Assembly (NCBI GenBank): GCA_050258415.1
Contig: JBLMYS010000147.1
Coordinates: 3,246 to 67,245, forward strand
Direction of reading: 5' to 3'
Origin: Acidobacteriota bacterium
GTDB taxonomy: Bacteria > Bacteroidota > Ignavibacteria > Ignavibacteriales > SURF-24
DNA length: 64,000 nt
Shown here: positions 6,496-52,583 of the stretch, in pieces
Layout: each line of letters opens with the position of its first letter
How positions within the stretch are numbered: the stretch's first letter is position 1
The notes under the pieces: model-generated
Databases searched by the model: none
What the model was told of the DNA's origin: nothing
What the model saw: only the letters and a program-made list of their open reading frames with translations
Translations under genes and position numbers: made by a program

Positions 6496-6590
6496 AAGCA
6501 AACCATTTTCTTTGGCAGATGAATAGAGATAAATTACTCCCCTGCCTCATGTATTCATTCAGGAACTAATATTCCGATGAATTTTCCAGG
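6496..6590 (-). promoter_or_regulatory. Conserved non-coding block B upstream of 3317-6271
   Basis: Gap-free alignment with 3195-3290 (see block A). Directly follows the 6591-6611 hairpin that ends the 6618-9308 gene. Confidence 0.5.
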
Positions 6591-6611
6591 GGGGCAGAGA
6601 TCCTCTGCCCC
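6591..6611 (-). terminator. 9-bp GC-rich hairpin just after the 6618-9308 stop (no U-tract)
   Basis: ggggcagag (6591-6599) / ctctgcccc (6603-6611) with a 3-nt loop. Confidence 0.4.
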
Positions 6612-6617
6612 GAATGA

Positions 6618-25693: not shown

Positions 25694-28600
25694 TTAGAAT
25701 ATTTCCAATGAGAATCTTAAACCCCAATAAATATTTCTGGGATTCAGGAAAGTAAAGTAATCCTGGTTCGGCATATCTATATAAGATTTATTCTTCTTCC
25801 ATTCAGCCTTCTGAGCATCAGTTGCTTTAACATCCCATGCATGGTATTCGCCAGTCCTGTAGTCACCAGGCTTGTCGTCGCCATATTCATAGATCTTGGG
25901 ATCATTGGTATTAGAATAAGGGGCTTTGATGTTGCCATCGTTATCCCTTGGGAAGTTTGCAAAAACGCTCTCTGGCAGGTGCAACGACTTCATGTAAGCT
26001 TCATAATCCTTTGTATCTGCAAAGCCTGCATTGCTGCCTAAGTAATCCATGTACTTAATATTGAGTACATTCTGCATATCAGCAAAGAGCTGAAGATTTA
26101 ATGGACCGAACTTTAGGTTCTTTGCTATCTTCAGGTCGAGGCCGTAGTAATCTTTCCACTGAATGTTGTTCTGAACACCCGGTATTGAACCGCCGCCTGT
26201 CCAGGTATCGTAACCGCCTGAACTCCAGCTGGCCAGAACGCTTAAACGCCAGTCTTCAAGAGGATAAAATCCGCCGAGCTTGGGACCGAATTCCATTGGT
26301 GTAAAGAAGTCCACATTGGCTCTTGCATAGGGCTGCGGAACCGGCTTTGTAACGAGATTATAGTTGTTAAGTGTCTCGATTTCATAAGTTCTCTGTACCT
26401 GTGAGTTTTCATTGTAAGCAGCAAAACCGAACCTGCCGCTTGTTGAAACCATATAGGTATAGTTAACAAAGCCCTGTACCCAGTTGCCGCGGTTCTTTGT
26501 AATCGTGGCTTCGAAGCCTCTGATGTCGGCATAAGAATTAGGCTTCGGAGTTGAGTAGTTTGTAGCACCGCTGCGGCTTGTATAAGTTACTGATAAAGGC
26601 TGCTGTGAAACGTCCTTATAATATCCTGAGAGGCGAACCAGGTACTCTTCGAAGAGACTCTGTTCGTAACCCAGCTCGTACATGATTGTTCTGGGCAACG
26701 GATTGTTCGGATTTGCAACATAGACAACTGCGTTATTGTCAGTAAATCTTCTGAGCAGATACAGGTTTGTAGGAGTAGGCAGCTGTCTGAAGTGACCATA
26801 GTTAAAGAACAGCTTGCTCGATTCGCTTAACGGGAATGCAATTGCAACACGCGGGCTTACTGTTACGTTAGCCTTTGTAGGCTGCTTCTGAAGCAGGGTG
26901 TCAATTCCCAGCGACTTGGCAGAGGAGAATGCGTCTGAATAAGGGTTATTTATCACATACCAGTCTTCATTGGCGGCCGAGTAATCCACTCTTAAACCAA
27001 CGTCGGCTATCATGCCTTCAAATTCAAGTTTGTCTTTAACATAAACCGCACCACGTGTAGGATAAGCATTCCACGTAGTTCTGTACCTTCCCGAAGGCAG
27101 ATACTTGTCGTAAGAGCCGTAATTGGCAAGGTTTTCACTATAGCCGAATTCAAAACCGGCCTTCAGGTTGTTATATTTGTTCAACTGTGAAGTAAGGTCA
27201 AATTTCAGGTTGTATGCTGTAACCTTGCTGGTGTCTCTGGAGTTACTGAAACCAACACTCATTCTGAAGTCTTCAATACCTGTGCTGGGTGATTCCAGGA
27301 AGCCGAACGGAGCTTCATCAACATATAAGTTTCCAAACTTATATACTCTGCTCGTATCTCTGTACCTTCCGGGGCTTGTGTCATATCTTGACTGGAAGCG
27401 GCTTACTGTAACTTCGTAAAATGTATTCGGATTCAGAACGTGAGTCAGTTTTGCACCGATATTATTTACGTTAACAGTTGATGGTGTAAAATAATCATTT
27501 GTAAAAATTCTGTTTTCGATTGTCTTGGCATTTGAGAAAAAGCTTAACTGAGCAGCAATGCTTGCCGGAGAACGGAACATTCCTATATCGCCTACGCCAT
27601 TGCTTGATGTTCCCTGCTGCTGGCCAACGAGTCCTTCGAGGTTAAGTTTCATACCCTGAGCCAGATCGGCAGTCAGTTTTACCTGGAAGTTATTATCCGT
27701 GTATGCATCGCGTGAAAGTGGCACAATGTACATTTCACGTGTTCCTCTGTATGCAGCCAGAAATCTCAGGTTTCCTAAATGCTGGCTGATTCCCGGGAAG
27801 TAGCCCGTAACGGAAAGATCCACGTCATAGTCAGGCTTATTGATATCAGTGTTTCTTCTGTGCTGGAAGAGGTATAATTTCTGCAGTTCCTGCGGAGTAA
27901 GAGCTGTTGAAGGATTATCCCTGAACATCTGCTCCGATAATTGGTTCCAACCTCCGAATTCAGGATACTGTGCCTGTGTGTAGTCGTCCCATGCGCCGTT
28001 TTTTGTACCGGTCCATGCAACTGCATCATCAACAAAAGGTCTGATCCAGAATGCATTTGCATCCTGAGGTGAATTTCCGAAGTGCTTCGGGCCTGTCGGC
28101 CTGTAGCGGCTATAGAAGGAAACGCCGAAACGGTCGGTCTTACCTTCTTTTGTTACAACGTTAACAAGGCCTGAACGGATGTTTCCGTATTCAGCACTGA
28201 AACCACCTGTCTGAACCTGAACTTCCTCAATAGCGGTTGTGCTTAAGCCTGTATAAGGCTGGTTTGAACGTTCATCTCTCAGGCTGACACCGTTTAGGAG
28301 CCAGGTTGTCTGATCGGCTGAACCTCCGCGGAAACTGCCGCCCTGAACGCCTGCCTGTAAACCGATAATATTTGATACCTGGGCTACAGGAAGGTTTTCC
28401 ATCTCTTTGCCGCTTAAGTTAAGCCTGCTGGCGGCAACGTCTTTTTGAACAACTGGGGTCTGAGCAACAACTACAACTTCAGCTGTCTGAAGTGAAGTTT
28501 CAACAAGTGCAATGTCAGCATCTGTTGTTTGATCGATGTTTACTCTAACATCCGTAACGGTAGTAGTATTATAACCTATAAGGCTGGCCTTAAGGTTATA

Positions 28601-28813
28601 CTTTCCCGGGGGAACGTTTAAAATTACATAGTAGCCTTCAGCATTAGAAGCGGCTCCCATTTTTGTTCCTTCCAAGACTACGTTTGCACCTATAAGAAGT
28701 TCGCCAGTTCTGGAATCTTTAACCACACCGGCAATTTTTCCTCCTGTCTGTGCAAATAATGAAATGTCTGTTAGAAGTAAAAAAAGCAGAATTATTGGTA
28801 ACACTAATCTCAT
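25694..28813 (-). CDS. TonB-dependent outer membrane receptor with N-terminal carboxypeptidase-regulatory-like domain (SusC-sized, no SusD partner)
   Basis: 1039 aa. GKIAGVVKDSRTGELLIGANVVLEGT..GYYVILNVPPGKYNLKASLIGY is a CarboxypepD_reg-like domain. Plug region (..NIIGLQAGV..LLNGVSLRDE..VQVQTGGFSAEYGN..). C-terminal aromatic YWGLRFSLEIF. Confidence 0.85.
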   Translation of the reverse strand: MRLVLPIILLFLLLTDISLFAQTGGKIAGVVKDSRTGELLIGANVVLEGTKMGAASNAEGYYVILNVPPGKYNLKASLIGYNTTTVTDVRVNIDQTTDADIALVETSLQTAEVVVVAQTPVVQKDVAASRLNLSGKEMENLPVAQVSNIIGLQAGVQGGSFRGGSADQTTWLLNGVSLRDERSNQPYTGLSTTAIEEVQVQTGGFSAEYGNIRSGLVNVVTKEGKTDRFGVSFYSRYRPTGPKHFGNSPQDANAFWIRPFVDDAVAWTGTKNGAWDDYTQAQYPEFGGWNQLSEQMFRDNPSTALTPQELQKLYLFQHRRNTDINKPDYDVDLSVTGYFPGISQHLGNLRFLAAYRGTREMYIVPLSRDAYTDNNFQVKLTADLAQGMKLNLEGLVGQQQGTSSNGVGDIGMFRSPASIAAQLSFFSNAKTIENRIFTNDYFTPSTVNVNNIGAKLTHVLNPNTFYEVTVSRFQSRYDTSPGRYRDTSRVYKFGNLYVDEAPFGFLESPSTGIEDFRMSVGFSNSRDTSKVTAYNLKFDLTSQLNKYNNLKAGFEFGYSENLANYGSYDKYLPSGRYRTTWNAYPTRGAVYVKDKLEFEGMIADVGLRVDYSAANEDWYVINNPYSDAFSSAKSLGIDTLLQKQPTKANVTVSPRVAIAFPLSESSKLFFNYGHFRQLPTPTNLYLLRRFTDNNAVVYVANPNNPLPRTIMYELGYEQSLFEEYLVRLSGYYKDVSQQPLSVTYTSRSGATNYSTPKPNSYADIRGFEATITKNRGNWVQGFVNYTYMVSTSGRFGFAAYNENSQVQRTYEIETLNNYNLVTKPVPQPYARANVDFFTPMEFGPKLGGFYPLEDWRLSVLASWSSGGYDTWTGGGSIPGVQNNIQWKDYYGLDLKIAKNLKFGPLNLQLFADMQNVLNIKYMDYLGSNAGFADTKDYEAYMKSLHLPESVFANFPRDNDGNIKAPYSNTNDPKIYEYGDDKPGDYRTGEYHAWDVKATDAQKAEWKKNKSYIDMPNQDYFTFLNPRNIYWGLRFSLEIF

Positions 28814-29156: not shown

Positions 29157-30005
29157 ATGAAAAGTCAATTTCCTTTAATCATGTTTCTTTGGGCTTTGCT
29201 TTCCTTTGCAATTTGTGCCCAGGAGGAAAAAATTGAGTGGAAAAGAGCCCCGGCAACCGAAATACCCGAACTTCACCTCTTCCAGTCCACACAGGTATTC
29301 AGCCTTCCGACTGCTGAAACGCTTCAGAAGGGAAATCTCCAGTTCGAAATATCTCACCGCTTCTTCCCGACTGTAAATACCGGTATAAGAAACTTTTTCG
29401 GACTCGACGGGCCTGTATTTATGCGCCTCGCCCTGGGCTACGCATTGACCAATAAACTCTCAGTCACCTTGGGCAGAAGCAACCTGAACGGGAATGTGGA
29501 CCTCAGGCTCAAATACAGAATACTCCAGATCCCGGACGGCTTTATGCCTATAGTCGCTGCCCTCAGACTCGGAGGAGCCTGGAATACCGAAACCGGCAGA
29601 AGCTCCACAGACACGAGAAACTACCAATATTACGGACAACTTATCCTGAATGCCATGTACGGCAACGTACTGGGACTTGGACTGGTACCTTCCTATCTAT
29701 ATAATAGCAACATTTTTACGCGCGAGGTGGAGCATACTTTTACTCTCGGAACCTACCTTGAAGGATACCTTACACACAGACTCGGCCTTATTTTTGAATG
29801 GAGCCCTGTCCTTTCGGGCTACAGACTGAACGCCAACCCGATGGCCTTCGGCATTGAAATTAACACGGGAGGTCACTTCTTTAAGATCCTCCTTACAAAC
29901 AGCACATACCTGAACCCTTCACAGTACCTTGCTGGAACGGATGACCCGGCCAGTGGCAAGAACTGGAGGCTCGGCTTTAATATCACGCGCCTGTTCGGAT
30001 TCTAA
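29157..30005 (+). CDS. Outer membrane beta-barrel protein of unknown function
   Basis: 282 aa with a signal peptide. Alternating-strand pattern. C-terminal NITRLFGF is an OMP beta-signal. AGGAG SD upstream. Followed by a strong terminator. Confidence 0.6.
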   Translation: MKSQFPLIMFLWALLSFAICAQEEKIEWKRAPATEIPELHLFQSTQVFSLPTAETLQKGNLQFEISHRFFPTVNTGIRNFFGLDGPVFMRLALGYALTNKLSVTLGRSNLNGNVDLRLKYRILQIPDGFMPIVAALRLGGAWNTETGRSSTDTRNYQYYGQLILNAMYGNVLGLGLVPSYLYNSNIFTREVEHTFTLGTYLEGYLTHRLGLIFEWSPVLSGYRLNANPMAFGIEINTGGHFFKILLTNSTYLNPSQYLAGTDDPASGKNWRLGFNITRLFGF

Positions 30006-30540: not shown

Positions 30541-30775
30541 GCCTCAAAGGCGGAAAAAGTTCATGAAAAACTGTGGAATCTATCGATATAAATCCCGTAA
30601 TGCATACCTTTACAACAAGGACGGCAGATAAAAGCAAAAGGCAAATGACAGTTTTGGAAATCAATAAAGACGCGGCATACTTTTTTGGCAAATATGTTTC
30701 TTTTATTTTTTTATAATTAAATTCATATTGCAGTTAATTTATTCTTTATATTCTTTAATTTTTGGCAAGAGTTTT

Positions 30776-33700
30776 ATGCGCCCGGAAATCCAAAACGTTA
30801 AAAAAATTCTCTTTTCAAATGTTGTTTGTCTTTTACTTTTGCTGCTATCCTGCGGCAGCCCCCTGCTCTACGCCCAGAATAATCTTACGACTTTTGAACA
30901 CATTTCAATTGAACAGGGACTTTCACAAAGCTCTATTAATTCAATTATTCAGGACTATAAGGGCTTTATGTGGATAGCTACGGCTGACGGACTGGACCGT
31001 TACGACGGCTATTCTTTTAAAATCTTCAGAAATATTCCACAGCAAACAGGATCCCTTTCCGATAACAGCGTTTCCGCGGTCTATGAGGATCATTCCGGCA
31101 ATCTCTGGGCTGGCACACTCCTCGGTAACCTGAATAAATACGACAGAAAAAAAGAACGCTTTACAAAATACAGCTTCGGAAGCGACTCCGGCTACTCAAG
31201 CCCTATTTTAACAGCTATCCCCGAATACCCCCTTACTTTCTCAAGATTTAACGACAGAACTATTACTTCTATCTCCGGCGATAAGAAAGGAAGGCTCTGG
31301 ATCGGTACATGGGGACAGGGAATCTTCAGCTTTGAGCCACAGACCGGAAAAATATTCCACTTTACACATGACCCTAAGGACCCGAACTCCATCAGCAGCA
31401 ACAGAATAGTTACTTTAATGGAGGATAAATCGGGCACACTCTGGGCCGGTACTTTCGGGGGTGGACTAGACAGAATTGAAAGAAAAATAAACGGCAGCAC
31501 GCCTGAAATAAAACTTTATGTCACCCGTTTCCAGAATATCCCCATGCTCCCGGGCAGCCTGAGCGATAACCGCGTGACTTCACTCTTCCAGGACCGCGAC
31601 GGAAGCCTGTGGATAGGAACTTTCGGAGGAGGACTCTGCAAAATGCCTTTTAACCTCCTTAAGGCAGAGGACCCCTCAAAAGTAAACTTCCTCCTCTTTA
31701 AGAATACCCCCGGTAACAGATCCTCTCTCAGCAGTAACTGGATCATGAAAGTAATCCAGGACCGCCTGGGATCTTTATGGATTGCCACCTTCGGCGGCGG
31801 CCTCAACAGGCTCGACTCCGGTACAGACAAATTCGCCGTCTTTAAGAACGACCCTTTGAACCCCGGCAGCCTCTCGGATAATGACGTCATCTCTCTTTGC
31901 GAGGACCAGTCGGGCATTATCTGGATCGGCACCCACCTTGGAAAAGGAATTAACAGGTACGACCGCAGCAGAAACAAGTTTACCCACTACAAACATATCC
32001 CGGGTGACCCTGCAAGCTTAAGCGATAATGTCGTCTGGACATTTTCTGAGGATAAGGAAGGAAAAATATGGATCGGAACTTACAGGGGGGGACTTAATGA
32101 ATTCGACCGCCAGAGCCATAAATTTAAGAGCTTCAAAAATAACCCCTCCAACCCTAACTCCATTAGCAGCAATCATATTAGAGCCGTTTATACGGATAAG
32201 AATGATAACCTATGGATAGGGACTTATAACGCCGGACTCAACTTTTTCGACCGGAAAACCGGAAAGTTTACCACCTATAAGCATAAGGCGAATGATTCTT
32301 CGAGCTTAAGTGAAAACCAGGTCATCTCCATTCTGGAAGACAGATCCGGCAACCTCTGGGCCGGCACATTCGGTGGAGGCCTGGACAGGGTTATAAAAAA
32401 TAAAGGACAGCTTTCTTTTGTTCATTACAAAAGTAACCCCTCTGACCCGAAAAGCCTTTCTGATAACAGAGTATATAAGATCTATGAGGATAAAGACGGC
32501 ACACTCTGGATCGGCACTTTCGGTGGAGGCTTAAGTAAATTTGACCCCGCAACCGGGACCTTTATCAATTACAAACACGACCCGTCTAACCCGAACAGCC
32601 TCAGCGATAACAGGGTCATATCAATTTATGAGGATTTCCAGGGTAACCTCTGGCTCGGTACATACGGAGGAGGACTTAACCGCTTCGACCCCCATACAGG
32701 AAAATTCTATAAATATATGCAGGACGGATCCTTAAGCGGCGTGGTCTACGGTATTCTTGAGGATAACGACCATAACCTCTGGATCAGCTCCGATAACGGA
32801 CTTGCAAGATTTACCCCCTCTACTTCGGCTTTCATTAATTACGACCTCCACGATGGTCTCCAGAGCATGGAGTTCAGCGGAGGCGCTTACTATAAATCGC
32901 ACACGGGCGAAATGTTCTTCGGCGGCATTAACGGATTTAATTCATTCTACCCCGACAGCATTAAAGTTAATACCCATATACCCCCTGTTGTAATAAGCGC
33001 TTTCAGAATTTTTAATAAGGTGGTCGATGGTGAGAACAACGAGATAATTTTAACAAATAAGGAAAACTTTTTCTCCTTTGAATTCGCCGCGCTCGATTAT
33101 ACAAACCCCGAGCAGAACCGATATGCCTATAAACTTGAGGGCTTCGACGACGACTGGCATTATGTTGATGCTTCAAGAAGACTTGCCAACTATACAAACC
33201 TCGATCCCGGGAACTACGTCTTCCATGTAAAAGGCTCTAATAACGACGGCGTGTGGAATGAAAAAGGCGCGGAAGTTAAAATTACAATCCTCCCTCCTTT
33301 CTACCGCACCTGGTGGTTCATTTTCCTTGCCGTAGTCATCATCGGAGGCACACTTACTTATTTTATTGCCAGCAGAATCAGCAACCTCCTGGCAATAGAA
33401 AGACTTAAGACAAAACTTGCGGCCGACCTGCACGACAATATCGGATCGGGACTTACGGAAATTTCCATACAAAGCCAGGTCCTTGCTGCCCAGCTTAATA
33501 AAAATAACAACGATGAATTAAAACAGAAACTTCTTAATATAAGCGATACTTCCGGCCAGCTCATAGACAATATGAGCGATATTGTCTGGGTGGTAAACCC
33601 GAAACGCGACACTCTCTACGACCTCATTCTGAGGCTTAAAGATTCATATTCGGAAATATTTTCTTCACTTGGAGTCTCCTTTAAGATTCATAACCTTGAG

Positions 33701-34042
33701 GCTCTCAGCGATGTAAAACTTCCGATGGAGTACAGGCAGAACTTATTTCTTATCTTTAAAGAAGCAATAAATAACAGCCTTAAACACAGCTGCTGTAAAA
33801 AAATTGAATTAAACACTTCCATTGAAGGCAGAAGGCTTGAGATGGAATTAGTCGATGACGGAAAGGGTTTTAATATAAAACAAAGCACTCCGGGTAACGG
33901 CCTTAACAACATACGCCGCAGGGCAAAAACCATCTCGGGCAGCCTTGTTGTAGCGTCCGCACCGGGCGAAGGAACGAGGATAAAATTTTCCGGTAAAATA
34001 CCCCGTTCCAAAACAATTTTTTTGAAACATAAAGAACAGTAA
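30776..34042 (+). CDS. Sensor histidine kinase with periplasmic Reg_prop beta-propeller repeats, Y_Y_Y domain, TM helix, HisKA_3 and HATPase_c domains
   Basis: ATG 30776 is preferred over TTG 30728. Repeats of SDNxVxxxxEDxxGxLWIGTxGGGL. NRYAYKLEGFDDDWHYV (Y_Y_Y). TM WWFIFLAVVIIGGTLTYFIA. LAADLHDNIGSGLTEI (HisKA_3). GNGLNNIRRRA..GEGTRIKF (ATPase). Confidence 0.85.
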   Translation: MRPEIQNVKKILFSNVVCLLLLLLSCGSPLLYAQNNLTTFEHISIEQGLSQSSINSIIQDYKGFMWIATADGLDRYDGYSFKIFRNIPQQTGSLSDNSVSAVYEDHSGNLWAGTLLGNLNKYDRKKERFTKYSFGSDSGYSSPILTAIPEYPLTFSRFNDRTITSISGDKKGRLWIGTWGQGIFSFEPQTGKIFHFTHDPKDPNSISSNRIVTLMEDKSGTLWAGTFGGGLDRIERKINGSTPEIKLYVTRFQNIPMLPGSLSDNRVTSLFQDRDGSLWIGTFGGGLCKMPFNLLKAEDPSKVNFLLFKNTPGNRSSLSSNWIMKVIQDRLGSLWIATFGGGLNRLDSGTDKFAVFKNDPLNPGSLSDNDVISLCEDQSGIIWIGTHLGKGINRYDRSRNKFTHYKHIPGDPASLSDNVVWTFSEDKEGKIWIGTYRGGLNEFDRQSHKFKSFKNNPSNPNSISSNHIRAVYTDKNDNLWIGTYNAGLNFFDRKTGKFTTYKHKANDSSSLSENQVISILEDRSGNLWAGTFGGGLDRVIKNKGQLSFVHYKSNPSDPKSLSDNRVYKIYEDKDGTLWIGTFGGGLSKFDPATGTFINYKHDPSNPNSLSDNRVISIYEDFQGNLWLGTYGGGLNRFDPHTGKFYKYMQDGSLSGVVYGILEDNDHNLWISSDNGLARFTPSTSAFINYDLHDGLQSMEFSGGAYYKSHTGEMFFGGINGFNSFYPDSIKVNTHIPPVVISAFRIFNKVVDGENNEIILTNKENFFSFEFAALDYTNPEQNRYAYKLEGFDDDWHYVDASRRLANYTNLDPGNYVFHVKGSNNDGVWNEKGAEVKITILPPFYRTWWFIFLAVVIIGGTLTYFIASRISNLLAIERLKTKLAADLHDNIGSGLTEISIQSQVLAAQLNKNNNDELKQKLLNISDTSGQLIDNMSDIVWVVNPKRDTLYDLILRLKDSYSEIFSSLGVSFKIHNLEALSDVKLPMEYRQNLFLIFKEAINNSLKHSCCKKIELNTSIEGRRLEMELVDDGKGFNIKQSTPGNGLNNIRRRAKTISGSLVVASAPGEGTRIKFSGKIPRSKTIFLKHKEQ

Positions 34043-34129
34043 AGCGTCTTAACATTAAAGATCCTTTACATATTATAACCGGGCCAATAATGAGGAGATT
34101 TTAACAATTTAATCGATACGGGTAATTTT

Positions 34130-34768
34130 ATGATATCAGTAATTATAGTTGAAGACAACAAGACGATACGCGAAGGACTCTCGGCTCTGATTAACGGCAC
34201 CGAAGGTTTCTCATGCATCGCCAGCTACGGCGACTGCGAAAGTTTTCTAAAAAACCTCGAATGCTCGAGCGTCGACGTAGTGCTTATGGATATCGGGCTT
34301 CCGGGCATGTCGGGAATTGAAGGCGTTATTAAAGCAAAAAAAATATGCCCCGACCTGAATATTCTTATATTAACGGTTTACGAGGAAAGCCAGGTGATAT
34401 TTGAAGCCCTCTGTGCGGGTGCCTGCGGCTACCTGGTCAAAAGGACGCCTCCTTTAAGGCTCCTTGAGGCGATAAAAGATGCATACGAAGGGGGATCTCC
34501 CATGAGCTCGCACATCGCACGCAAAGTTGTAACAGTGTTCCAGCAGCACACAAATCCCCTTTTTCCCGACTCCCAGTTCGACCTGACGCAAAGGGAAAAG
34601 GAGGTCTTAACGGGACTTGCCGAAGGGAGCAGTTACCTTGACATTGCGCAGTCGCTTTTTATAAGCCTTGATACAGTGCGTCATCACATAAGAAACATAT
34701 ATAGAAAGCTTCACGTCCACTCCCAGTCAGAAGCCGTAGCCAAAGCATTAAGAAAGGGACTCATATAG
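34130..34768 (+). CDS. NarL/FixJ-family response regulator (REC + LuxR-type HTH)
   Basis: 212 aa. VIIVEDNKTIREGL .. VDVVLMDIGLPGMSG. LTQREKEVLTGLAEGSSYLDIAQSLFISLDTVRHHIRNIYRKL. Confidence 0.9.
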   Translation: MISVIIVEDNKTIREGLSALINGTEGFSCIASYGDCESFLKNLECSSVDVVLMDIGLPGMSGIEGVIKAKKICPDLNILILTVYEESQVIFEALCAGACGYLVKRTPPLRLLEAIKDAYEGGSPMSSHIARKVVTVFQQHTNPLFPDSQFDLTQREKEVLTGLAEGSSYLDIAQSLFISLDTVRHHIRNIYRKLHVHSQSEAVAKALRKGLI

Positions 34769-34972: not shown

Positions 34973-35118
34973 TTGAATTTCCTCTTCATTTCATCCCCCG
35001 AATTCTGCGCTTCAGGCCGCTATTCCGGCACCTCGGTCCAATTGCTCTTTTTCTGCTTTTGCCTAAATCTTAACTTTACCTGACAGTTTATTCCAGCATA
35101 CTAAATTTGGAGCGCTAT

Positions 35119-36168
35119 ATGAAAAAGATTAAAGTAACTTTGAGCCTGACACTTATGGGTGCAGTTATAATTGCAGTACTCTTCATGAATAAGGCTTCAA
35201 GAGAATCTCAGGTGGAAAAATCCCTTACAACCGATAAAATTACCGTCTCAGTCGAGCAGGCGAAGATAGAAGCTATCTCCGATGCCCTCTCAATCATCGG
35301 AACTATACAGTCATATAACGACGTAATGGTTATCTCCGAAACCCAGGGCAGAACACTTAAGGTGTTCATTAAAACAGGCGACTTTGTCAAAGAAGGCGCG
35401 GTTATAGCGCAGGTAGACGACGAGCTGAAAAAAGCCGCCTATACCACCGCAAAGGTCAACTTCGAAAAGGCTAAAAAAGACCTCGAGAGAATGGAAGCCC
35501 TTTTTAAGGAAAAAAACATCTCCGACTCCGACCTCGAAAATGCCCGCCTTGGCGCTTCGGCCGCAGAGGCACAGTTTATTGCAGCCCAGAGGACGCTTAA
35601 CGACACAAAGATCAAGGCTCCTATTTCAGGAATAGTTGCAGATAAATTCATCAACCCCGGCACCATGGTCGGCCCCGGCACTCCGGTGGCCAATATAATA
35701 GATATATCTAAACTTAAAGTCAGGGTTAATGTGCCTGAACGCGATGTGTTCAGACTTAAAACCGGTGAAAACGTAACACTTACAACCGACGTCTACCCCG
35801 GCACTGAAATGAAAGGCAGAATTGAAACTATCAGCTCCAAATCCGATAACGCTCATACATACCCGGTTGAAATTGTCCTTGTTAACAATTCACGCACTCC
35901 TCTTAAAGCAGGCATGTTCGCACAGGTCACTTTTACAAGCATTACCGGCAGACAGGCTCTTGCAATACAAAGAGGCGCAATTGTTACAAGCATAAAAAAT
36001 CCCAAAATCTATGTGGTTGAAAACGGCGTTGCAAAACTAAGAGATATAATTGCAGGCAAGGAAACCAACAGAAGAGTTGAAGTTTTAGGCGGGCTCCGCC
36101 CGGGCGATAATGTTGTCATAAGCGGACAGAATAACCTGAGCGATAACGCACGGGTAACCATAAACTAA
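35119..36168 (+). CDS. RND efflux periplasmic adaptor (membrane fusion protein, HlyD family)
   Basis: ATG 35119 (MKKIKVTLSLTLMGAVIIAVLF) is preferred over TTG 35107. Coiled-coil segment, then IKAPISGIVADKFINPGTMVGPGTPVANIID..KVRVNVPE. Confidence 0.85.
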   Translation: MKKIKVTLSLTLMGAVIIAVLFMNKASRESQVEKSLTTDKITVSVEQAKIEAISDALSIIGTIQSYNDVMVISETQGRTLKVFIKTGDFVKEGAVIAQVDDELKKAAYTTAKVNFEKAKKDLERMEALFKEKNISDSDLENARLGASAAEAQFIAAQRTLNDTKIKAPISGIVADKFINPGTMVGPGTPVANIIDISKLKVRVNVPERDVFRLKTGENVTLTTDVYPGTEMKGRIETISSKSDNAHTYPVEIVLVNNSRTPLKAGMFAQVTFTSITGRQALAIQRGAIVTSIKNPKIYVVENGVAKLRDIIAGKETNRRVEVLGGLRPGDNVVISGQNNLSDNARVTIN

Positions 36169-36209: not shown

Positions 36210-39200
36210 ATGACGATTACAGAATTATCTATAAAAAGGCCGCCGCTTGTAATAGTAATTTTTACCGTGCTGGCTGTCCTTGGATATTTCAGCTATAATC
36301 AGCTACGCTACGAGCTGATTCCCGATGTTACTCCTCCGTTTGTAACTGTTATGACCGCCTATCCCGGAGGGTCGCCAAATGAAGTTGAAACCTCCATAAC
36401 CAAGGTCGTTGAAGACGCGGTTTCAAGCGTCGATAAAATTAAAACTATTCAAAGCAGCTCCTTCGAAGGCGTGTCCTTTGTTTTTATTGAATTCACACAG
36501 TCCGTCGACGTTAATATAGCTCTGCAGAACGTGCAGCGCAAGGTTGGCGAAATTGTAAACCAGCTCCCCTACTCCGCCAAAAGTCCTGTAATTTCAAAGT
36601 TCTCTCTTACCGAGCTCCCGATCTTAAGAATGGGCGTAACGGCTGAAATGGAGCCTAATGAATTCTACCAGTTCATGAAGGACAAGGTTAAACCCCAGAT
36701 CTCTAAACTTGCCGGTGTCGGCCAGGTAACTTTTGCCGGGGGCGAGGAAAGAGAAATTAAAATAAACCTGGACCTTCAAAAGCTCAACTCATACAACATC
36801 CCCGTCCTTCAGGTCCTCCAGGCGGTTAAAAGCTCTAATATGGACTTCCCGGTCGGTAAAATTAAGGATGCAGACGGGCAGTATATTGTAAGAGTCTCAG
36901 GTAAATTTTCCTCTCTCGAGGAACTGAAGAACCTTATTGTAAGCCGGTCGGAAGCCGGGGGCAACATCAAGCTCCAGGACATTGCCGAGGTAGAAGACGG
37001 CACAAAAGAAGCCGAGAGCTACGCCAGGCTCAACGGCAAAAGCGCCCTTGGAGTGCTGGTACAGAAACAAACTGACGCCAATGCCGTTGAGGTGAGCCGA
37101 CTTGTCAATCAGGAACTAAAAAAAATTGAAGCCGCAAATGCCGATAAAAAACTTAAGTTCGACGTGGCACAGGATCTTTCAAGCTTTACGCTCGAGGCGG
37201 CACGCGCCGTAAATAAGGACCTTCTCATTGCAGTCGTGCTCGTGGCAATAGTAATGCTTATGTTCCTGCACAGCCTCAGAAACTCCGTTATCGTAATGGT
37301 TGCCATACCGGCTTCACTCGTTTCAACTTTCATAGGAATGTATGCATTCGGTTTCTCGCTTAACCTGATGACGCTTCTGGCGCTTTCACTTGTAATCGGT
37401 ATCCTTGTGGACGACTCAATTGTGGTGCTCGAAAATATTTACCGCCACATGGAACTCGGTAAACCTCAGCGCCAGGCGGCACTGGAGGGAAGAAATGAAA
37501 TTGGTTTTGCAGCGCTCTCAATTACACTCGTGGACGTTGTAGTGTTCCTTCCGCTTGCTCTTATTCAGGGACTCATTGGTGATATAGTGCGCCAGTTTGC
37601 GCTTGTTGTAGTTGTATCCACGCTCTTAAGCCTTTTTGTTTCTTTTACTGTTACACCAATGCTTGCATCACGCTTTACAAAGCTGCAGCACCTTACAAAA
37701 AATACCGCCATGGGACGCTTCGGCATCTGGATTGAAAACGCTTTCGACAGGCTCACTGATAAGTATACCGCCGTCCTGAAACTCGGTATGAATAACGGCT
37801 GGAAGGTAATTGCCTTTGCGGGCCTCCTGCTTGTACTGTCTATCGCCCTGATACCTGCCGGCTTTATTGGCTCCGAGTTCATGCCTCCTTCGGACCGCGG
37901 GGAGCTTGCAGTTATAATGGAACTGCCGGAAAGGATAAACCTCGAAGAGACAAACCTTGTTACTCTTCAGGCAGAAAATATAATTTCAAAAATGCCCGAA
38001 GTAAAAAAAGTGTTTGCTAATGCCGGCTCGTCTTCTGAAGGCTTTATAGGATATACATCCAACAGCGTGGCGGAACTTAACGTATCGCTTGTACCCAAAA
38101 CCCAGAGGACCAAAAGCGATATACAGGTCAGCCGCGAGATAAAGGAAAAACTTCTTCATATCCCGGGCGTTAAACCAAGGGTCAGCCCGATCGGCATCTT
38201 CGGCAGCTCAGATATGGCTCCAATCGCCCTGCTTATATCAGGGCCCGACTTTAATGAAGTTGAAAACGCCGGGAAAATGCTCAAAGAGGCTGTTCAGAAA
38301 ATCCCCGGCACCGGAGACGTGCGTATCAGCAGCGGCGAGGGGAAACCTGAAACCAGAGTTGAAATTAACCGCGAAAAAATGGCCGCTCTCGGCATCGGAC
38401 TCGACCAGGTTGCCGCTACAATGAGAGTCGCCTTTACAGGCGATGACGAATCCAAATTCCGCCAGGGAAACGATGAATACGACATAAGAATTGTTTTCGA
38501 TAAGTTCGACCGCAACAATACCTCCGACCTCGGCAGAATAACTTTTATGAATAACCGCGGCGAGAAGATCGAACTTTCCCAGTTCGCAAATATTTATCAG
38601 ACTATCGGCCCTACACAGCTTTCAAGAAAAAACAGGACCGCGGCCATCTCAATCCTCTCCCAGGCCGTCGGCCGCCCGAGCGGAGATATTGCCGAAGATA
38701 TTAAAAAGGAACTGGCAAAACTGAAGATCCCATCAAATATTGAGGTTACATTTGAAGGAGACGTCCAGATGCAGGAAGAATCCTTCCAAAGCCTTTTCAT
38801 TGCTTTAATGGTCGGGATCCTTTTTGTTTACCTTATCATGGTGGCGCTCTATAACTCTTTTGTCTACCCGTTCATTGTCCTCTTCTCTATCCCTGTGGCC
38901 ATAGTCGGTGCGCTCCTGGCAATGGCGCTCTTTATGAAGTCGCTTAACATATTCTCCATACTCGGCATTATTATGCTGGTGGGACTTGTAGGCAAGAACG
39001 CCATTCTGCTTGTTGACCGTACAAACCAGGTGCGCGAAGAAGGAATGTCTATGCGAGATGCACTTATTGACGCGGGGCGTACAAGGCTCAGGCCTATTTT
39101 AATGACTACATTTGCAATGGTCTTCGGAATGCTCCCGATTGCAATTTCAATGGGCGCAAGCTCTGAACTAAAGTCGGGCCTTGCCACGGCCCTTGTAGGA

Positions 39201-40745
39201 GGCCTTATCAGTTCACTTCTGCTTACACTTATACTTGTACCCGCGGTTTACATAAAAGTGGAAAACCTGAAGGTGAGGGTTGTTAACTTTATTGACAGGT
39301 TTAAGGATAAAGGATCTAAAGAAGAAACTCGTCAAGAAGAATATAAACAACCCGTTGAAGAAGAAGAGCCCGGTACGTTCAGCTTCAGAAAGATGCTTAA
39401 GGGATTCAGCATATTTATCATAATCCTCATGGCCCTTTCTTCATCTTCCTATGCACAGAAAGTAAGAAGGCTCTCTCTTAATGATGCCGTTTCTATTGCG
39501 CTTGAACAGAACCGGGACCTTAAGATTGCTTATTACGACAAAGCTAAAAACGGGCAGAGGGTAAAAGAAGCCTACGGAAATGCAATGCCTACCATTACAG
39601 GATCGGGGCAGTACATCAGAAACCTGAAGCTTCCTGTTTTCTATATGCCGAGCTTTTCGTTCGACCCGAATGCCGGGCTTACAATGGGACCAAGCCAGCC
39701 GATGGAAATAGGCCTTAAAAACAACTTTACAGGTACAATCAGCGCCGAATGGCCTCTTTTCCAGGGGGCCATTTATGCCGGCATCAGAGCCGCCAGAATT
39801 ATAGATGAGATCGGCTCTGAAAACATTATAAATACACGGGCCTCAACCATTACAGAAGTCAGGAAAGCATACTATAATATTCTTATCGTAAAAGAGCAGT
39901 ATAACCTCCTTGCGCAGAGCATCAAAAGAGGCTCTCAGGCACTCAGGGATGTAAAACTCCTCTTTCAGCAGGGACTAGCAGGCGAGCTCGATACTCTGAG
40001 GGCATTTGTTGCGGTTGAAAACCTGAAACCAATGCTCATTAAGACTGAAAATGGCATCTCAATTGCAAAGTCTTTCCTTGGCAATCTTCTGGGCCTTCCT
40101 GCAGGCGAAACGGTTGAGCCTGCGGATTCACTTACAGCCGGAGAATTATTTAAGCAGTACGACTTTTCAGAAGCGTCAGCTGAAGAAGCATTAAATAAGC
40201 GCCCTGAACTCAGCCTGCTGGATCTGCAGATAAGGGCAAATGATGAACTAATTAATGCAGAAATTGCAGGCCACATGCCAACGCTTGCCGCCTTCGGGCA
40301 GCTTCAGGCTGTCCTTCAGGCAGATAACTATAATTTTAACCAGCGCTGGCCCGCCAGCGCTGTAATCGGGCTCAACCTTTCAATACCGATATTTTCAGGT
40401 TTCAGGACGGATGCAAAGATTGAGCAGGCAAGAATTGAAAAGAAAAAGCTTGAAACACAGTTTGATAACCTGAAGGATTTAATTGCAACTGATGTCAAGG
40501 TTAATGCCTCCAGCGTAGAAGAGGCGCATAAAAGAATCGAAGCACAGACTCAGACGGTAAAGTCGGCCGAAAGGAGTTATGAGCTTACAAGAAGCCGCTG
40601 GCTTAAAGGCGTAAGCCGCCAGACGGAGCTTTTTGACGCCGAACTGGCGCTTACTCAGGCAAAAACAAATTACCTCCAGGCCATTTATGATTATCTTGTA
40701 GCCGGAGCCGAACTGGAAAAATCCCTCGGAAGAGCCGGAAGATAA
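36210..40745 (+). CDS. Single uninterrupted ORF encoding an RND (AcrB/HAE1-type) permease (aa 1 to about 1040) followed in frame by a TolC-like outer membrane factor (aa 1062-1511)
   Basis: 1511 codons with no stop, checked codon by codon across 39240-39440. The N-terminal part has typical ACR_tran sequence (MTITELSIKRPPLVIVIF.. 12 TM pattern). A charged linker KDKGSKEETRQEEYKQPVEEEEPGTFSFRK follows, then MLKGFSIFIIILMALSSSSYAQ (signal-peptide-like), then an OEP-family sequence (RLSLNDAVSIALEQNRDLKIA...). Confidence 0.75.
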   Translation: MTITELSIKRPPLVIVIFTVLAVLGYFSYNQLRYELIPDVTPPFVTVMTAYPGGSPNEVETSITKVVEDAVSSVDKIKTIQSSSFEGVSFVFIEFTQSVDVNIALQNVQRKVGEIVNQLPYSAKSPVISKFSLTELPILRMGVTAEMEPNEFYQFMKDKVKPQISKLAGVGQVTFAGGEEREIKINLDLQKLNSYNIPVLQVLQAVKSSNMDFPVGKIKDADGQYIVRVSGKFSSLEELKNLIVSRSEAGGNIKLQDIAEVEDGTKEAESYARLNGKSALGVLVQKQTDANAVEVSRLVNQELKKIEAANADKKLKFDVAQDLSSFTLEAARAVNKDLLIAVVLVAIVMLMFLHSLRNSVIVMVAIPASLVSTFIGMYAFGFSLNLMTLLALSLVIGILVDDSIVVLENIYRHMELGKPQRQAALEGRNEIGFAALSITLVDVVVFLPLALIQGLIGDIVRQFALVVVVSTLLSLFVSFTVTPMLASRFTKLQHLTKNTAMGRFGIWIENAFDRLTDKYTAVLKLGMNNGWKVIAFAGLLLVLSIALIPAGFIGSEFMPPSDRGELAVIMELPERINLEETNLVTLQAENIISKMPEVKKVFANAGSSSEGFIGYTSNSVAELNVSLVPKTQRTKSDIQVSREIKEKLLHIPGVKPRVSPIGIFGSSDMAPIALLISGPDFNEVENAGKMLKEAVQKIPGTGDVRISSGEGKPETRVEINREKMAALGIGLDQVAATMRVAFTGDDESKFRQGNDEYDIRIVFDKFDRNNTSDLGRITFMNNRGEKIELSQFANIYQTIGPTQLSRKNRTAAISILSQAVGRPSGDIAEDIKKELAKLKIPSNIEVTFEGDVQMQEESFQSLFIALMVGILFVYLIMVALYNSFVYPFIVLFSIPVAIVGALLAMALFMKSLNIFSILGIIMLVGLVGKNAILLVDRTNQVREEGMSMRDALIDAGRTRLRPILMTTFAMVFGMLPIAISMGASSELKSGLATALVGGLISSLLLTLILVPAVYIKVENLKVRVVNFIDRFKDKGSKEETRQEEYKQPVEEEEPGTFSFRKMLKGFSIFIIILMALSSSSYAQKVRRLSLNDAVSIALEQNRDLKIAYYDKAKNGQRVKEAYGNAMPTITGSGQYIRNLKLPVFYMPSFSFDPNAGLTMGPSQPMEIGLKNNFTGTISAEWPLFQGAIYAGIRAARIIDEIGSENIINTRASTITEVRKAYYNILIVKEQYNLLAQSIKRGSQALRDVKLLFQQGLAGELDTLRAFVAVENLKPMLIKTENGISIAKSFLGNLLGLPAGETVEPADSLTAGELFKQYDFSEASAEEALNKRPELSLLDLQIRANDELINAEIAGHMPTLAAFGQLQAVLQADNYNFNQRWPASAVIGLNLSIPIFSGFRTDAKIEQARIEKKKLETQFDNLKDLIATDVKVNASSVEEAHKRIEAQTQTVKSAERSYELTRSRWLKGVSRQTELFDAELALTQAKTNYLQAIYDYLVAGAELEKSLGRAGR
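39393..40745 (+). other. TolC-like outer membrane factor module with its own Met and signal-peptide-like segment, nested in frame in the 36210-40745 ORF (possible internal start)
   Basis: ATG 39393-39395 is in frame with 36210. MLKGFSIFIIILMALSSSSYAQ/KVRRLSLNDAV.. is what an independent OMF precursor would look like. Confidence 0.5.
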
Positions 40746-40827: not shown

Positions 40828-41979
40828 ATGGAAAAACAGGGAAATTTCCGGGACCATAACCCGGACGAAACTCATATGCTTAAAGGCTACAGGAATTATA
40901 TCAGGGAAAATCGTTCCTACGTTTTCGACAGGAGCTTCCGCTTCATAGGAATACCTGTAATCGGAGTGTTTGTTTACCTTATTATCCTTGTTTCAACCCC
41001 TATTCCCCCTGAGGCACCTTTCTCCTTCTGGCCTCACGTGCTGGGCGATTTACTTATTGCCGTTGTAATTTCTATTCTTGTCTGGGAAGGAAACCTTAAG
41101 ATTAACGACAGAATAGGGAAACGTTACGACTGGCACACGCAGCCCAGAAAAAGACTCTTCTACCAGATACTCTTTAATACAATTTATACTATTATTGTTA
41201 TTCTGGGAGCTATACTCCTCTATACAAAGATAATGGATTACCCGCTTCAGAAGGCAATGCCGTTTATCAGGCTTACGATGCTCATCGGCGTAATTATATT
41301 TCTTTTAATTGACGCTATTTATATCGGCTCACACTTTTTCAGGCAGTGGGAAAAATCACGTTTTGAATCCGAGGAGCTCAAGCGCCAGAACCTGCAGTCG
41401 CAGTTCGACGCCCTTAAAAATCAGGTCAACCCACACTTCCTCTTTAACAGCCTGAATACCCTTGCAACTCTTATCTCTGAGGACCAGAAACTGGCCGAGG
41501 AGTTTGTGCAGAGAATTGCAAGCGTCTACCGCTATGTCCTGCAGAATAAGGACAAGGAACTCATAGAGCTTGAAGAAGAATTAAATTTTATTAAAGCTTT
41601 CCTTTTCCTTCAAAGCGTTCGCTTTGGCGAAAACCTCACCGTATTCGTCAGCGTCCCGGCAAATTTTAACAGATACTATATTGCGCCTTTAACCCTTCAG
41701 ATGATCGTTGAAAATGCAATAAAACATAATATCATCTCCTCAGAAAAACCTCTTGAAATACATATATGCGTTGATGATAGTAACATGCTTGTTGTAAGCA
41801 ACAACCTGCAGAAGAAAAAAAATATCAATACCTCTACCGGAATAGGACTCGTAAATATTCAGCAGAGATATGACATTCTGGTAAAAAAGAACATAGAAAT
41901 AATTACCGATGATTCTCATTTTACAGTTAAAATTCCCTTAATCAAAGAGAAGCCCGTTCATGAAAATACTCATTATTGA
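40828..41979 (+). CDS. LytS/YehU-type sensor histidine kinase (membrane domain + His_kinase/GHKL)
   Basis: 383 aa. Several TM segments, then the hallmark NPHFLFNSLNTLATLI and the ATPase region NAIKHNI.. GIGLVNIQQRY. The start is uncertain; the alternative is ATG 40876 (MLKGYRNY). Confidence 0.8.
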   Translation: MEKQGNFRDHNPDETHMLKGYRNYIRENRSYVFDRSFRFIGIPVIGVFVYLIILVSTPIPPEAPFSFWPHVLGDLLIAVVISILVWEGNLKINDRIGKRYDWHTQPRKRLFYQILFNTIYTIIVILGAILLYTKIMDYPLQKAMPFIRLTMLIGVIIFLLIDAIYIGSHFFRQWEKSRFESEELKRQNLQSQFDALKNQVNPHFLFNSLNTLATLISEDQKLAEEFVQRIASVYRYVLQNKDKELIELEEELNFIKAFLFLQSVRFGENLTVFVSVPANFNRYYIAPLTLQMIVENAIKHNIISSEKPLEIHICVDDSNMLVVSNNLQKKKNINTSTGIGLVNIQQRYDILVKKNIEIITDDSHFTVKIPLIKEKPVHENTHY

Positions 41980-42727
41980 AGATGAAGCTCCGGCTTCAAG
42001 AAGATTGAAGAAACTTCTTTCAGAGCTGGAACCGATGGCTGAAATCGAAGGAAGCCTCGAAAGCGTGGAGGCCTCGGTTGAATGGCTTAAGAAAAACCCA
42101 GCCCCCGACATAATTTTCATGGATATACAGCTTTCAGACGGACTCAGCTTTGAAATATTCAACAGCGTTAATGTCGACAGTCCCGTTGTTTTCACTACGG
42201 CCTATGATGAGTATGCGATTCAGGCCTTTAAGGTGAACAGCATAGATTACCTCCTGAAGCCTATCGACACTGAAAGCCTCGCCTCAAGCATCGAAAAATA
42301 CAGGAGGATAAGAGACACCTACTCAGTACAGTACAGGGCAAATGAAATCGCTGAGCTGTTAAAATCCATTACCCCGGCTCACCCTGTGTACAAGTCGCGC
42401 TTTCTTATAAAATCCGGCACAAGCATGCTGGTCATACCGGCAAACGAAATAGCATATTTTTATGTTGAAAATAAAATAACATATCTGGTTGGATGTAACG
42501 GGAAAAAACATCTTACGGATCACTCGCTTGAGGACCTCGAAGAACTCCTGGACCCGCAGTTCTTTTTCCGTGCAAACAGAAAATTCATCGTGCATATAGA
42601 TACAATTGAAAGCGCGGCCTCGGCATTCGGGGGAAAGCTTAAGCTGAGACTCACACAGAAGACCGATGAGGAAATAGTAGTAAGCCGCGAAAGGGCATCG
42701 GCATTCCGTGAGTGGCTGGATAAATAA
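41960..42727 (+). CDS. LytR/AlgR-family response regulator (REC + LytTR DNA-binding domain)
   Basis: 255 aa. MKILIIEDEAPA.. DIIFMDIQLSDGLSFE. LytTR region ..IAYFYVENKITYLV..FFRANRKFIVHIDTI. Overlaps the kinase gene by 20 nt. Confidence 0.9.
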   Translation: MKILIIEDEAPASRRLKKLLSELEPMAEIEGSLESVEASVEWLKKNPAPDIIFMDIQLSDGLSFEIFNSVNVDSPVVFTTAYDEYAIQAFKVNSIDYLLKPIDTESLASSIEKYRRIRDTYSVQYRANEIAELLKSITPAHPVYKSRFLIKSGTSMLVIPANEIAYFYVENKITYLVGCNGKKHLTDHSLEDLEELLDPQFFFRANRKFIVHIDTIESAASAFGGKLKLRLTQKTDEEIVVSRERASAFREWLDK

Positions 42728-51329: not shown

Positions 51330-52583
51330 ATGGTTCCACGTCTCTCAGTACTTTTTTTGTTTCTTTTCACAACAGCCTCTTTTGCCCAGACGGGCACTGA
51401 GAATCCCGATTCATTGCTCCTCGAGGGCAATTTCCTCAAGCTTCAGGAAGTTCTCAGTAATGAAAACGCATCTAAGGCCGCCTCCTACCAGGGGATAATC
51501 GCTGCCGTAAAGGAAGTCACTAAACTGGATAATAAAGGCCTTCTGATCCAACAGGCTAAGAACTATACGAATAATTATAGGGAAGCCTTTGTGGGGATTT
51601 GGGCTTCAAAAGCTTTCATGAAATTCAAATCCTCGGCCGATAAAGGGAATGAGGATGAGGCAATCAGGTATTTCTACATTGCCCGTTTCTTTAAGAACAA
51701 TTATATCTCCGGCCTTAAAATCTCCCTGGACAGGGAATTCAAAGAGGCCCGGGAATGCTATAACCGCAGGGAATTTAACAGATCGCTTGAACTAAGCCAG
51801 TATGTTGAAAGTATAACCAACGGCAATCCATTCTTCGCTCAGTCGTTTAAGGACTCTGTTAAGTTCTTCAGCCTGAGGGTAAAAGAAAAATTTATGACAG
51901 ATGAGAAGGAGAAAAAAGACTGGCTCCTGGAGGAGAAAAATGATTATAGATTCAGTGTCACTTTAGGTGGCGGCCTGCTTTATTATCCCTCACTCACGCA
52001 GTACGATTTTATATATTTACTAAAAGACCCTATAAATCTGAAAAAGATACCATTGCACATACCGGCAAAGATAAAAGGAGAAGTGGGCTTCGGATATTCA
52101 TTTTCTGCGGGTTATAAAGTGCTGGATTACCTCAGGCTTAACTTTTTATATTCTGCCGGAAGTGTGAAATATAAAGAACTGGAACTGCCTCAAACCATAG
52201 GAAAAACCAGCCTTGAGGTTAAGAATTCAGATTTCCTCCTCTCAGCCAGATATTATCCTAAAACCACAGCGGGCATATGCCCCTATATTGGACTTGGTTA
52301 CGGATACAGCAGTTTTACAAGGAGCAGTTTTTCTTCTATAACCAAATACCGTAATTACCTGGCTAATTATGGTCAAATAGATCAGCTCATTGAGCTTTCG
52401 ATGCCTGAGAACAGTTTCAGTACATCAGTGTTAAATGCAGTTTTCGGCCTGGATTATGTTCCCTCTGCTGAGAGCCATTTTATGTACAACCTCGGCTTTT
52501 CCTTTGACAAGTCCTCTCAGGCTGATTACTTTCTTAAAGGATATAAATTGGCAGTTGGATTTTATGCAGGCATATTACTCTAA
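51330..52583 (+). CDS. Secreted hypothetical protein with helical N-terminal half and beta-barrel-like C-terminal half
   Basis: 417 aa. Signal peptide LFLFLFTTASFAQ. The C-terminal 200 aa show an alternating aromatic/Gly strand pattern (VGFGYSFSAGYKV, PYIGLGYGYSSF, AVGFYAGILL). Confidence 0.55.
   Translation: MVPRLSVLFLFLFTTASFAQTGTENPDSLLLEGNFLKLQEVLSNENASKAASYQGIIAAVKEVTKLDNKGLLIQQAKNYTNNYREAFVGIWASKAFMKFKSSADKGNEDEAIRYFYIARFFKNNYISGLKISLDREFKEARECYNRREFNRSLELSQYVESITNGNPFFAQSFKDSVKFFSLRVKEKFMTDEKEKKDWLLEEKNDYRFSVTLGGGLLYYPSLTQYDFIYLLKDPINLKKIPLHIPAKIKGEVGFGYSFSAGYKVLDYLRLNFLYSAGSVKYKELELPQTIGKTSLEVKNSDFLLSARYYPKTTAGICPYIGLGYGYSSFTRSSFSSITKYRNYLANYGQIDQLIELSMPENSFSTSVLNAVFGLDYVPSAESHFMYNLGFSFDKSSQADYFLKGYKLAVGFYAGILL

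Follow-up and report, generated by a model that had tools for sequence, protein, structure and literature searches.

A continuous RND permease-outer membrane factor open reading frame with a predicted internal signal peptide: a probable polyprotein precursor of a tripartite efflux pump

The stretch analysed here (the window) comprises 64,000 nucleotides of contig JBLMYS010000147.1 (positions 3,246 to 67,245 of the forward strand; assembly GCA_050258415.1), from a bacterium deposited as Acidobacteriota and placed by GTDB in the Ignavibacteria (Ignavibacteriales, SURF-24). Its open reading frame (ORF) list contains a single uninterrupted 1511-codon frame which starts with ATG and encodes a 1511-aa precursor of 166 kDa with the layout RND::signal-peptide::OMF, that is, an AcrB-like permease of the resistance-nodulation-division (RND) type, a signal-peptide-like segment and a TolC-like outer membrane factor (OMF). 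An earlier examination of the letters alone (the sequence-only reading) had proposed that both proteins were encoded in one continuous frame, and this was confirmed by the ORF list, the translation and the raw junction sequence: no stop codon was found between 39180 and 39540 or in the full translation, and each of the peptide strings quoted at that time was present in the translation. The end of the AcrB-like part reads ..LILVPAVYIKVENLKVRVVNFIDRF and is followed by a 30-aa linker, KDKGSKEETRQEEYKQPVEEEEPGTFSFRK, containing 7 Lys plus Arg and 9 Asp plus Glu residues, after which the frame runs on as MLKGFSIFIIILMALSSSSYA/QKVRRLSLNDAV (here and below, the slash marks the predicted cleavage site); an ATG at 39393-39395 lies within the same frame. 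An AAGGA motif resembling a Shine-Dalgarno (SD) sequence was found 13 nt 5' of the ORF start, and the gene for a periplasmic adaptor, or membrane fusion protein (MFP), lies 41 nt upstream of the ORF, with ATG 35119 as its probable true start. All three parts of a tripartite pump are present at this locus, two of them in one frame (Table 1).

Table 1. Coordinates of the fused gene, its modules and the neighbouring genes in the window (TM12, transmembrane helix 12).
Feature	Coordinates	Strand	Evidence or remarks
RND::signal-peptide::OMF precursor	36210..40745	+	One 1511-codon ORF, 166 kDa
RND permease module, aa 1-1014, through TM12	36210..39251	+	Pfam ACR_tran, MdtB alignment, hydropathy
Predicted cytoplasmic tail and linker, aa 1015-1061	39252..39392	+	Hydrophilic, poorly conserved, ends in basic n-region ..FSFRK
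Predicted internal signal peptide, aa 1062-1082, MLKGFSIFIIILMALSSSSYA	39393..39455	+	h-region FSIFIIILMAL, c-region SSSSYA
Predicted signal peptidase I site, Ala1082/Gln1083	39453..39458	+	Conserved -1 and +1 residues
Predicted mature OMF (TolC/OprM-like), aa 1083-1511, 47.6 kDa	39456..40742	+	Pfam OEP x2, AlphaFold2 model, Foldseek
Periplasmic adaptor (MFP) gene	35107..36168	+	TIGR01730 RND_mfp, 231.6 bits vs cut-off 94.9; Pfam HlyD_D23, HlyD_3
LytS-type histidine kinase gene	40828..41979	+	Pfam His_kinase PF06580, E 3e-24; directly downstream of the fused gene
LytTR-family response regulator gene	41960..42727	+	Pfam Response_reg and LytTR; overlaps the kinase gene by 20 nt

Domain searches placed both modules on the same protein. 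In the Pfam search ACR_tran (PF00873) spanned aa 4-1017 (E 4.8e-266) and a pair of OEP repeats (PF02321) was detected within the C-terminal 430 aa (E 1.6e-53); NCBIfam concurred, with RND permease subfamily models at the N-terminal part and TolC/NodT models at aa 1072-1508. The ACR_tran match scored 885.7 bits against a cut-off of 28 and covered profile positions 2-1020 of 1021, and the closest solved relative of the RND part, MdtB (9lyq), aligned with it end to end over aa 6-1022 (E 2.8e-125). The proton-relay residues of MdtB had aligned equivalents in the TM4 Asp-Asp pair (D401/D402, in VDDS, aa 400-403) and in the TM10 Lys (K929, in GKNAI, aa 928-932); the RND part also contains RLRPILMTT at aa 959-967, which we take to be the counterpart of AcrB R971/T978. 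The hydropathy peaks fitted the RND pattern of transmembrane helices, TM12 ending at about aa 1014 (..LILVPAVY) according to hydropathy and homology. The RND part scored below the curated cut-offs of all NCBIfam subfamily models, including the HAE-1 model TIGR00915 (573 against 940) and NF033617 (776 against 1250), and was assigned to no subfamily or substrate class; its relatives carry the HAE1 label in JGI.

The OEP match of the C-terminal module reached 181.8 bits, against a cut-off of 22, in two stretches. Scores below the cut-offs were obtained with both TIGR01844, the TolC type-I-secretion subfamily (108.7 against 225), and TIGR01845, the NodT lipoprotein subfamily (85.5 against 210), and no lipobox Cys was found in the OMF, whose +1 residue is Gln. 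The OMF sequence KVRRLSLNDAVSIALEQNR.. begins almost directly after Gln1083. An AlphaFold2 model of the predicted mature OMF (aa 1083-1511; mean predicted local distance difference test score 85.9, predicted template modelling score 0.75) showed a duplicated helix-strand-strand-long-helix pattern, in which the first helix begins at residue 8 and the fold starts about 5 residues past the predicted cleavage site. Foldseek comparison of the model, over 422-439 columns, gave template modelling (TM) scores of 0.82 to CusC (3pik), 0.80 to OprM and 0.77-0.81 to TolC, with other matches to these three proteins down to TM 0.74. Judged from the alignments and the model, neither module looks degenerate.

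The segment between the modules has, by sequence rules, the features of a Sec/signal peptidase I signal peptide with the site S-Y-A/Q: its n-region is RK-M-LK, its h-region has 11 residues with a mean Kyte-Doolittle value of 3.1, and its c-region ends in Ser-Tyr-Ala. Residue for residue, it aligns with the signal peptide at the N-terminus of OMF precursors that are encoded on their own; that of P0126, for example, reads ..LLLALVSAAEA/QVRRLSLNDALSLALEFNRELKV (QVRRLSLNDAL), compared with ..LMALSSSSYA/QKVRRLSLNDAVSIALEQNRDLKI in the window.

The fusion was not confined to this contig. A full-length protein search returned at least 54 proteins carrying both domains (>1300 aa; 1455-1599 aa) with 45-92% identity, nearly all of them spanning 100% of the query, plus two partial ones. 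They came from NCBI metagenome-assembled genomes (MAGs), JGI, ENA and Logan assemblies, with contigs of 1-5.9 Mb among them, and were labelled mostly as Ignavibacteria, Ignavibacteriales or Kapabacteria. A single cluster contained five independent MAG proteins with the fusion, and one fused member was found on contigs of 3.1 and 5.9 Mb. When GTDB DNA was read directly, in a scan that used a 5-sequence OMF alignment, at least four genomes had single open frames of 1468-1568 codons encoding RND plus OMF; those among the matches listed were three Ignavibacteria and one Terriglobia (Acidobacteriota) MAG, L083. An exhaustive HMMER search of 50%-identity cluster representatives with aa 700-1511 of the query yielded at least 22 fused representatives of full length, the most distant of them 26-28% identical. 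The fused proteins are annotated either as 'TolC family protein' or as 'efflux RND transporter permease subunit', and the fusion is not flagged. Two 'partial TolC' proteins on 3-kb contigs (P0121 and P0122, 66-67% identical) begin at contig ends and were set aside as uninformative on the fusion. One homologue, P0258 (1812 aa), is a three-part fusion, an RND::OMF protein in which a periplasmic binding domain of the ABC_sub_bind type (aa 1115-1350, E 5e-6) comes after the internal signal peptide and before the OEP repeats.

These data bear on one explanation of the long frame, namely that the stop codon between two ordinary neighbouring genes was recently lost by mutation or is missing through an error of sequencing or assembly. 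The contig is of the metagenome type and single-base errors can delete stops; however, more than 50 divergent homologues, which stem from separate projects and assemblers, carry the same fusion, both modules are intact, with catalytic residues kept and a confident OMF model, and the linkers differ in length by whole codons. The junctions of 11 genes picked as fused contained 0 in-frame stops over 627 codons, whereas 39 and 50 stops were counted in the two alternative frames. When orthologues were compared for a stop codon at the junction, the same open fusion was seen in the 54 or more homologues and no relative with an RND-stop-OMF arrangement appeared; likewise, scanning 84 loci with RND and OMF profiles gave zero cases of an RND gene followed by a separate OMF gene, the OMF relatives in these loci being fused (4), orphan genes (Chlorobi), or located upstream in OMF-MFP-RND operons. 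The fusion is kept across many independent assemblies, and therefore a lost stop or an assembly error, one of the alternatives offered by the sequence-only reading, was excluded; the probability we leave to artefact or decay is negligible.

The same homologues indicated which part of the junction is conserved. The stretch that separates TM12 from the cleavage site measured 37 to 108 aa across the 54 homologues and the tail after TM12 could not be aligned; despite this variable tail, the Lys/Arg-rich n-region, a short uncharged segment and the n/h/c layout were kept. The uncharged h plus c segment had a median length of 18 residues. Position -1 was occupied by Ala in 49 homologues, Ser in 4 and Gly in 1, position -3 by an aliphatic or small residue (L/I/A/V/S/T/M/G), and position +1 by Gln in all 54. 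Together, these features constitute the grammar of signal peptidase I substrates, and cleavage is thus predicted at A1082/Q1083. Selection for Gln at +1 is most easily explained if this residue becomes a new N-terminus. The deeper fused representatives, from phyla that do not follow the Q-rule (see below), had the same layout and a canonical AXA-type site with Glu, Asp or Ala at +1, as in ..PASA/EE and ..SVHA/AE; in the Terriglobia member L083 the junction reads WIRKRWSGK-AAAASALAAVLAVGTGVALA/EGP, ending in GVALA/EGP, and has no Met in the n-region.

In Bacteroidetes, the Q-rule describes an exposed Gln which is cyclised to pyroglutamate, and a Q-value of 77% was reported for Ignavibacterium album (PMC5837995). 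In the window, at least 14 ORFs begin with a signal-peptide-like N-terminus followed by Gln, 10 of them as Ala/Gln. Judging from these N-termini, the source organism follows the Q-rule first described for Bacteroidetes, and the +1 Gln of the fused homologues agrees both with this rule and with the N-termini of the window. ORFs with N-termini of this type include those at 22532-23548(-), 23572-25677(-), 25694-28813(-), 29157-30005(+) and 51330-52583(+).

A different reading of the hydrophobic segment is that it serves as a permanent thirteenth transmembrane helix, the OMF staying joined to the RND permease in an uncleaved single-chain pump. The continuous frame fits this arrangement, and the longer uncharged segments of some homologues (up to 28-31 residues in P0016, P0017 and P0031) could span a membrane. 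Against this, both the median h plus c length and the h-region of about 11 residues in the window are signal-peptide-like rather than transmembrane-like, and the small-x-small site with an invariant +1 Gln bears the hallmarks of signal peptidase I substrates. Furthermore, in solved TolC and OprM assemblies the N-terminal region of the OMF lies far from the inner membrane; since the modelled fold starts so close to the predicted site, a tethered OMF could not place its beta-barrel in the outer membrane. We regard an uncleaved pump as very improbable.

Internal initiation at ATG 39393 was raised as an alternative in the sequence-only reading. In the form considered here, the OMF is translated independently from this codon as a conventional secretory precursor, and the read-through chain is a by-product of little importance that results from a missing stop. 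An ATG is located exactly 21 codons before the predicted site in the window, L005, P0002, P0003, P0005 and P0006, and translation from it would produce a signal peptide of textbook form; a TTG or ATG that could serve as a start is present in L085 and L086 as well. However, Met1062 of the window was lost in close relatives, being Ala in P0004 (88% identical) and an ATT codon in P0007/L030 (78%), and any Met located 14-40 residues upstream of +1 was found in just 14 of the 54 homologues. One or other of M, V and L occurs close to the n-region in every homologue, which makes the protein level uninformative, and start codons were surveyed in the DNA instead: 7 of the 11 fused junctions lacked ATG, GTG and TTG throughout the 14 codons within which a start would give a working signal peptide, and the presence of a start-like codon in the remaining 4, compared with 46-72% per gene expected by chance, indicated no enrichment. 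No SD-like motif was detected in the 25 nt before 39393, although about half of the genes in the window, this ORF's own start included, have an AGGAG-like motif at -8 to -14. Neither a promoter-like nor a terminator-like site was found at 39200-39400, an observation of low weight since promoters of this phylum may not follow the sigma-70 consensus. Finally, were the OMF translated on its own, the rapidly evolving linker should be able to accumulate stops and frameshifts, but the sample examined contained no relative with an RND-stop-OMF order. On these comparisons, internal initiation is not a conserved mechanism of the family; as an explanation for this particular gene the earlier proposal may still hold, but we consider it unlikely.

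The comparative evidence thus favoured the model that the sequence-only reading had preferred, in which an internal signal sequence inserts with its N-terminus in the cytoplasm and signal peptidase cuts after SYA. We consider it probable, with good confidence, that the protein is a natural polyprotein precursor whose internal signal peptide directs the OMF through the inner membrane and from which signal peptidase I releases the OMF. The C-terminus of RND permeases is cytoplasmic, by homology with solved structures; a basic and then hydrophobic segment that follows a cytoplasmic stretch inserts N-in/C-out through SecYEG, and signal peptidase I cuts after small-x-small motifs at the periplasmic face. 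One 1511-aa chain would be made, and its RND part, with 12 transmembrane helices, would insert into the inner membrane and leave its C-terminus in the cytoplasm, a topology assigned by homology. With the chain still bound to the translocon, the signal peptide after the hydrophilic tail would insert N-in/C-out and start Sec translocation of the OMF. Signal peptidase I would then cut between Ala1082 and Gln1083, as the conserved motif suggests, releasing a 47.6-kDa OMF whose new N-terminal Gln would probably be cyclised to pyroglutamate, as in other Q-rule organisms. The freed OMF would fold into the outer membrane and dock, via the adaptor encoded upstream, onto the 118.7-kDa RND product, which would retain the tail and the signal peptide. 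RND and OMF would in this way be made at an obligate 1:1 ratio, fitting a trimer-to-trimer stoichiometry, and the OMF would be delivered co-translationally and dedicated to one pump.

Several points weigh against this reading. In this gene and its nearest relatives an ATG coincides with the first codon of the predicted signal peptide, and some separate translation of the OMF may take place here; the signal peptide was judged by sequence rules (a basic n-region, an h-region of 7-15 residues and small residues at -1 and -3). All fused members come from MAGs or metagenomes, none of them from a cultured, studied organism. The zero count of in-frame stops is partly a matter of ascertainment, because the genes were picked as fused, and the absence of split relatives holds for the sample of 84 loci examined. 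The trees described below are neighbour-joining trees without support values, and the number of fusion events is uncertain.

Regarding the genomic context, the MFP gene was located upstream of the fused gene in all the other fused loci examined (L083 and L085-L090). Directly downstream, the gene order MFP, RND::OMF, kinase and regulator recurred in L006, L085, L087, L088 and L089, whose fused proteins are about 50% identical to that of the window; the kinase/regulator pair spans 40828-42727 in the window, 7356-9263 in L006, 10578-12456 in L085, 5888-7733 in L087, 7527-9346 in L088 and 7454-9350 in L089. From this four-gene synteny, the LytS/LytTR pair is probably a dedicated regulator of the pump module. 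L086 and L090 were without the downstream pair. In the Terriglobia MAG (L083, CAVVHE010000008.1) the fused gene, at 2845-7248, is preceded by a HlyD adaptor gene and followed by a gene for a BBP2 porin-like protein. In the window, a large hybrid sensor kinase of the Reg_prop/Y_Y_Y type (1104 aa) and a response regulator of the LuxR type are encoded at 30728-34768, a short way upstream of the pump module.

The nearest unfused RND permeases (about 63% identical) were all encoded in (TetR)-OMF-MFP-RND operons, for example L003, L091 and L092. These operons of Ignavibacteria and Kapabacteria resemble the window in that they belong to the same phylum and encode similar RND (about 63%) and MFP (47% identical) proteins; they differ in having separate genes, with the OMF gene first, and in their OMF, which is 25% identical to the fused one (the OMF of the window, 39456-40742, was compared with L003 4550-5869 and L001 7001-8401). 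The nearest standalone relatives of the fused OMF were instead orphan OMF genes of Chlorobi and Thermochlorobacter (40-49%); the OMF-only protein search that gave them was used solely for standalone relatives, and it listed no fused proteins although these are 50-92% identical in this part, so that its list says nothing against the existence of fused relatives. With RND and MFP close to those of the sister operons and the OMF at 25%, the fused OMF belongs to another OMF lineage than theirs, and the operon seems to have exchanged its OMF partner in the course of evolution.

In the neighbour-joining tree of RND parts, most of the fused proteins fell in one large group that also holds an unfused Ignavibacteria clade, and several deep fused lineages (P0330, P0380, P0315, P0332 and L083/P0313) were scattered among unfused RNDs. 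The RND part of L083 resembled unfused RNDs more closely than it did the fused clade of Ignavibacteria, that of P0380 was 45% identical to its best unfused neighbour versus 35% to its best fused one, and that of P0332 47.6% versus 42.8%. A single origin of the fusion was compatible with a first tree; the wider tree, in which an unfused clade is placed near the subclade of the window, and the identities argued for several origins. Together they suggest several independent fusions, possibly with some losses.

Compared with the classical pumps AcrAB-TolC of Escherichia coli and MexAB-OprM of Pseudomonas aeruginosa, the system of the window shares the three components, the upstream MFP gene, an RND with 12 transmembrane helices and proton-relay residues, and the TolC/OprM/CusC fold, and the assembled machine is presumably like that of classical tripartite RND pumps. 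In contrast, the classical RND and OMF are encoded by separate genes (mexB and then oprM, with their own starts; tolC unlinked), whereas the window encodes them in one translation product, and, unlike in classical pumps, the OMF would be dedicated to a single pump and is predicted not to be a lipoprotein, having Gln at +1 and no Cys. In this comparison the components are well known; what is new is the manner of their joining and, as far as the conserved site allows us to infer, of their separation.

A mechanistic precedent, with unrelated proteins, is FbcH of Bradyrhizobium japonicum, a cytochrome b-c1 polyprotein whose processing was reportedly demonstrated by Thony-Meyer et al. in the early 1990s. 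This single ORF first encodes a polytopic protein of the inner membrane whose C-terminus is cytoplasmic; an internal signal peptide and a protein that faces the periplasm come next, and cleavage at this signal peptide reportedly yields two separate subunits of one complex at 1:1. Both FbcH products remain at the inner membrane, whereas the OMF of the window would travel to the outer membrane after its predicted processing. Engineered AcrA-AcrB fusion constructs have been used for cryo-electron microscopy. According to the accessible part of a comprehensive review of tripartite pumps, SecDF of Thermus thermophilus is one chain, a fusion within the RND superfamily; the same part makes no mention of a natural RND-OMF fusion (PMC8277102). 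SecDF and AcrA-AcrB resemble the window in that a single polypeptide unites components of an envelope machine, but there the parts lie in the same membrane or the join is artificial with an added transmembrane helix, and inner and outer membrane parts are not joined by a cleavable signal peptide. No description of natural RND-OMF fusions was found in the literature searched. The earlier remark that such a fusion would be very unusual therefore stands for the searchable literature and needs qualification for sequence databases, where it forms a sizeable, recurrent family.

Tripartite efflux pumps rank among the main causes of the intrinsic resistance of Gram-negative bacteria to drugs and toxins, and how their inner and outer parts reach the right ratio and meet is still debated. 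We think it likely that RND::OMF polyproteins represent an undescribed route of tripartite-pump biogenesis, which arose independently several times (in Ignavibacteriota/Kapabacteria, Acidobacteriota and others). If so, the fused precursor would be a built-in answer to the stoichiometry problem and would provide a dedicated, not shared, exit channel, and its recurrence would imply a selective advantage, for example a fixed 1:1 stoichiometry or co-translational delivery of an outer membrane protein coupled to the signal recognition particle. It would also be a rare case of a bacterial polyprotein that signal peptidase divides at an internal signal peptide, with one half sent to a different membrane. 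The current labels, 'TolC family protein' or 'RND permease', conceal half of the function of these proteins, which may offer a natural single-gene design for expressing RND-OMF pairs in structural or synthetic work.

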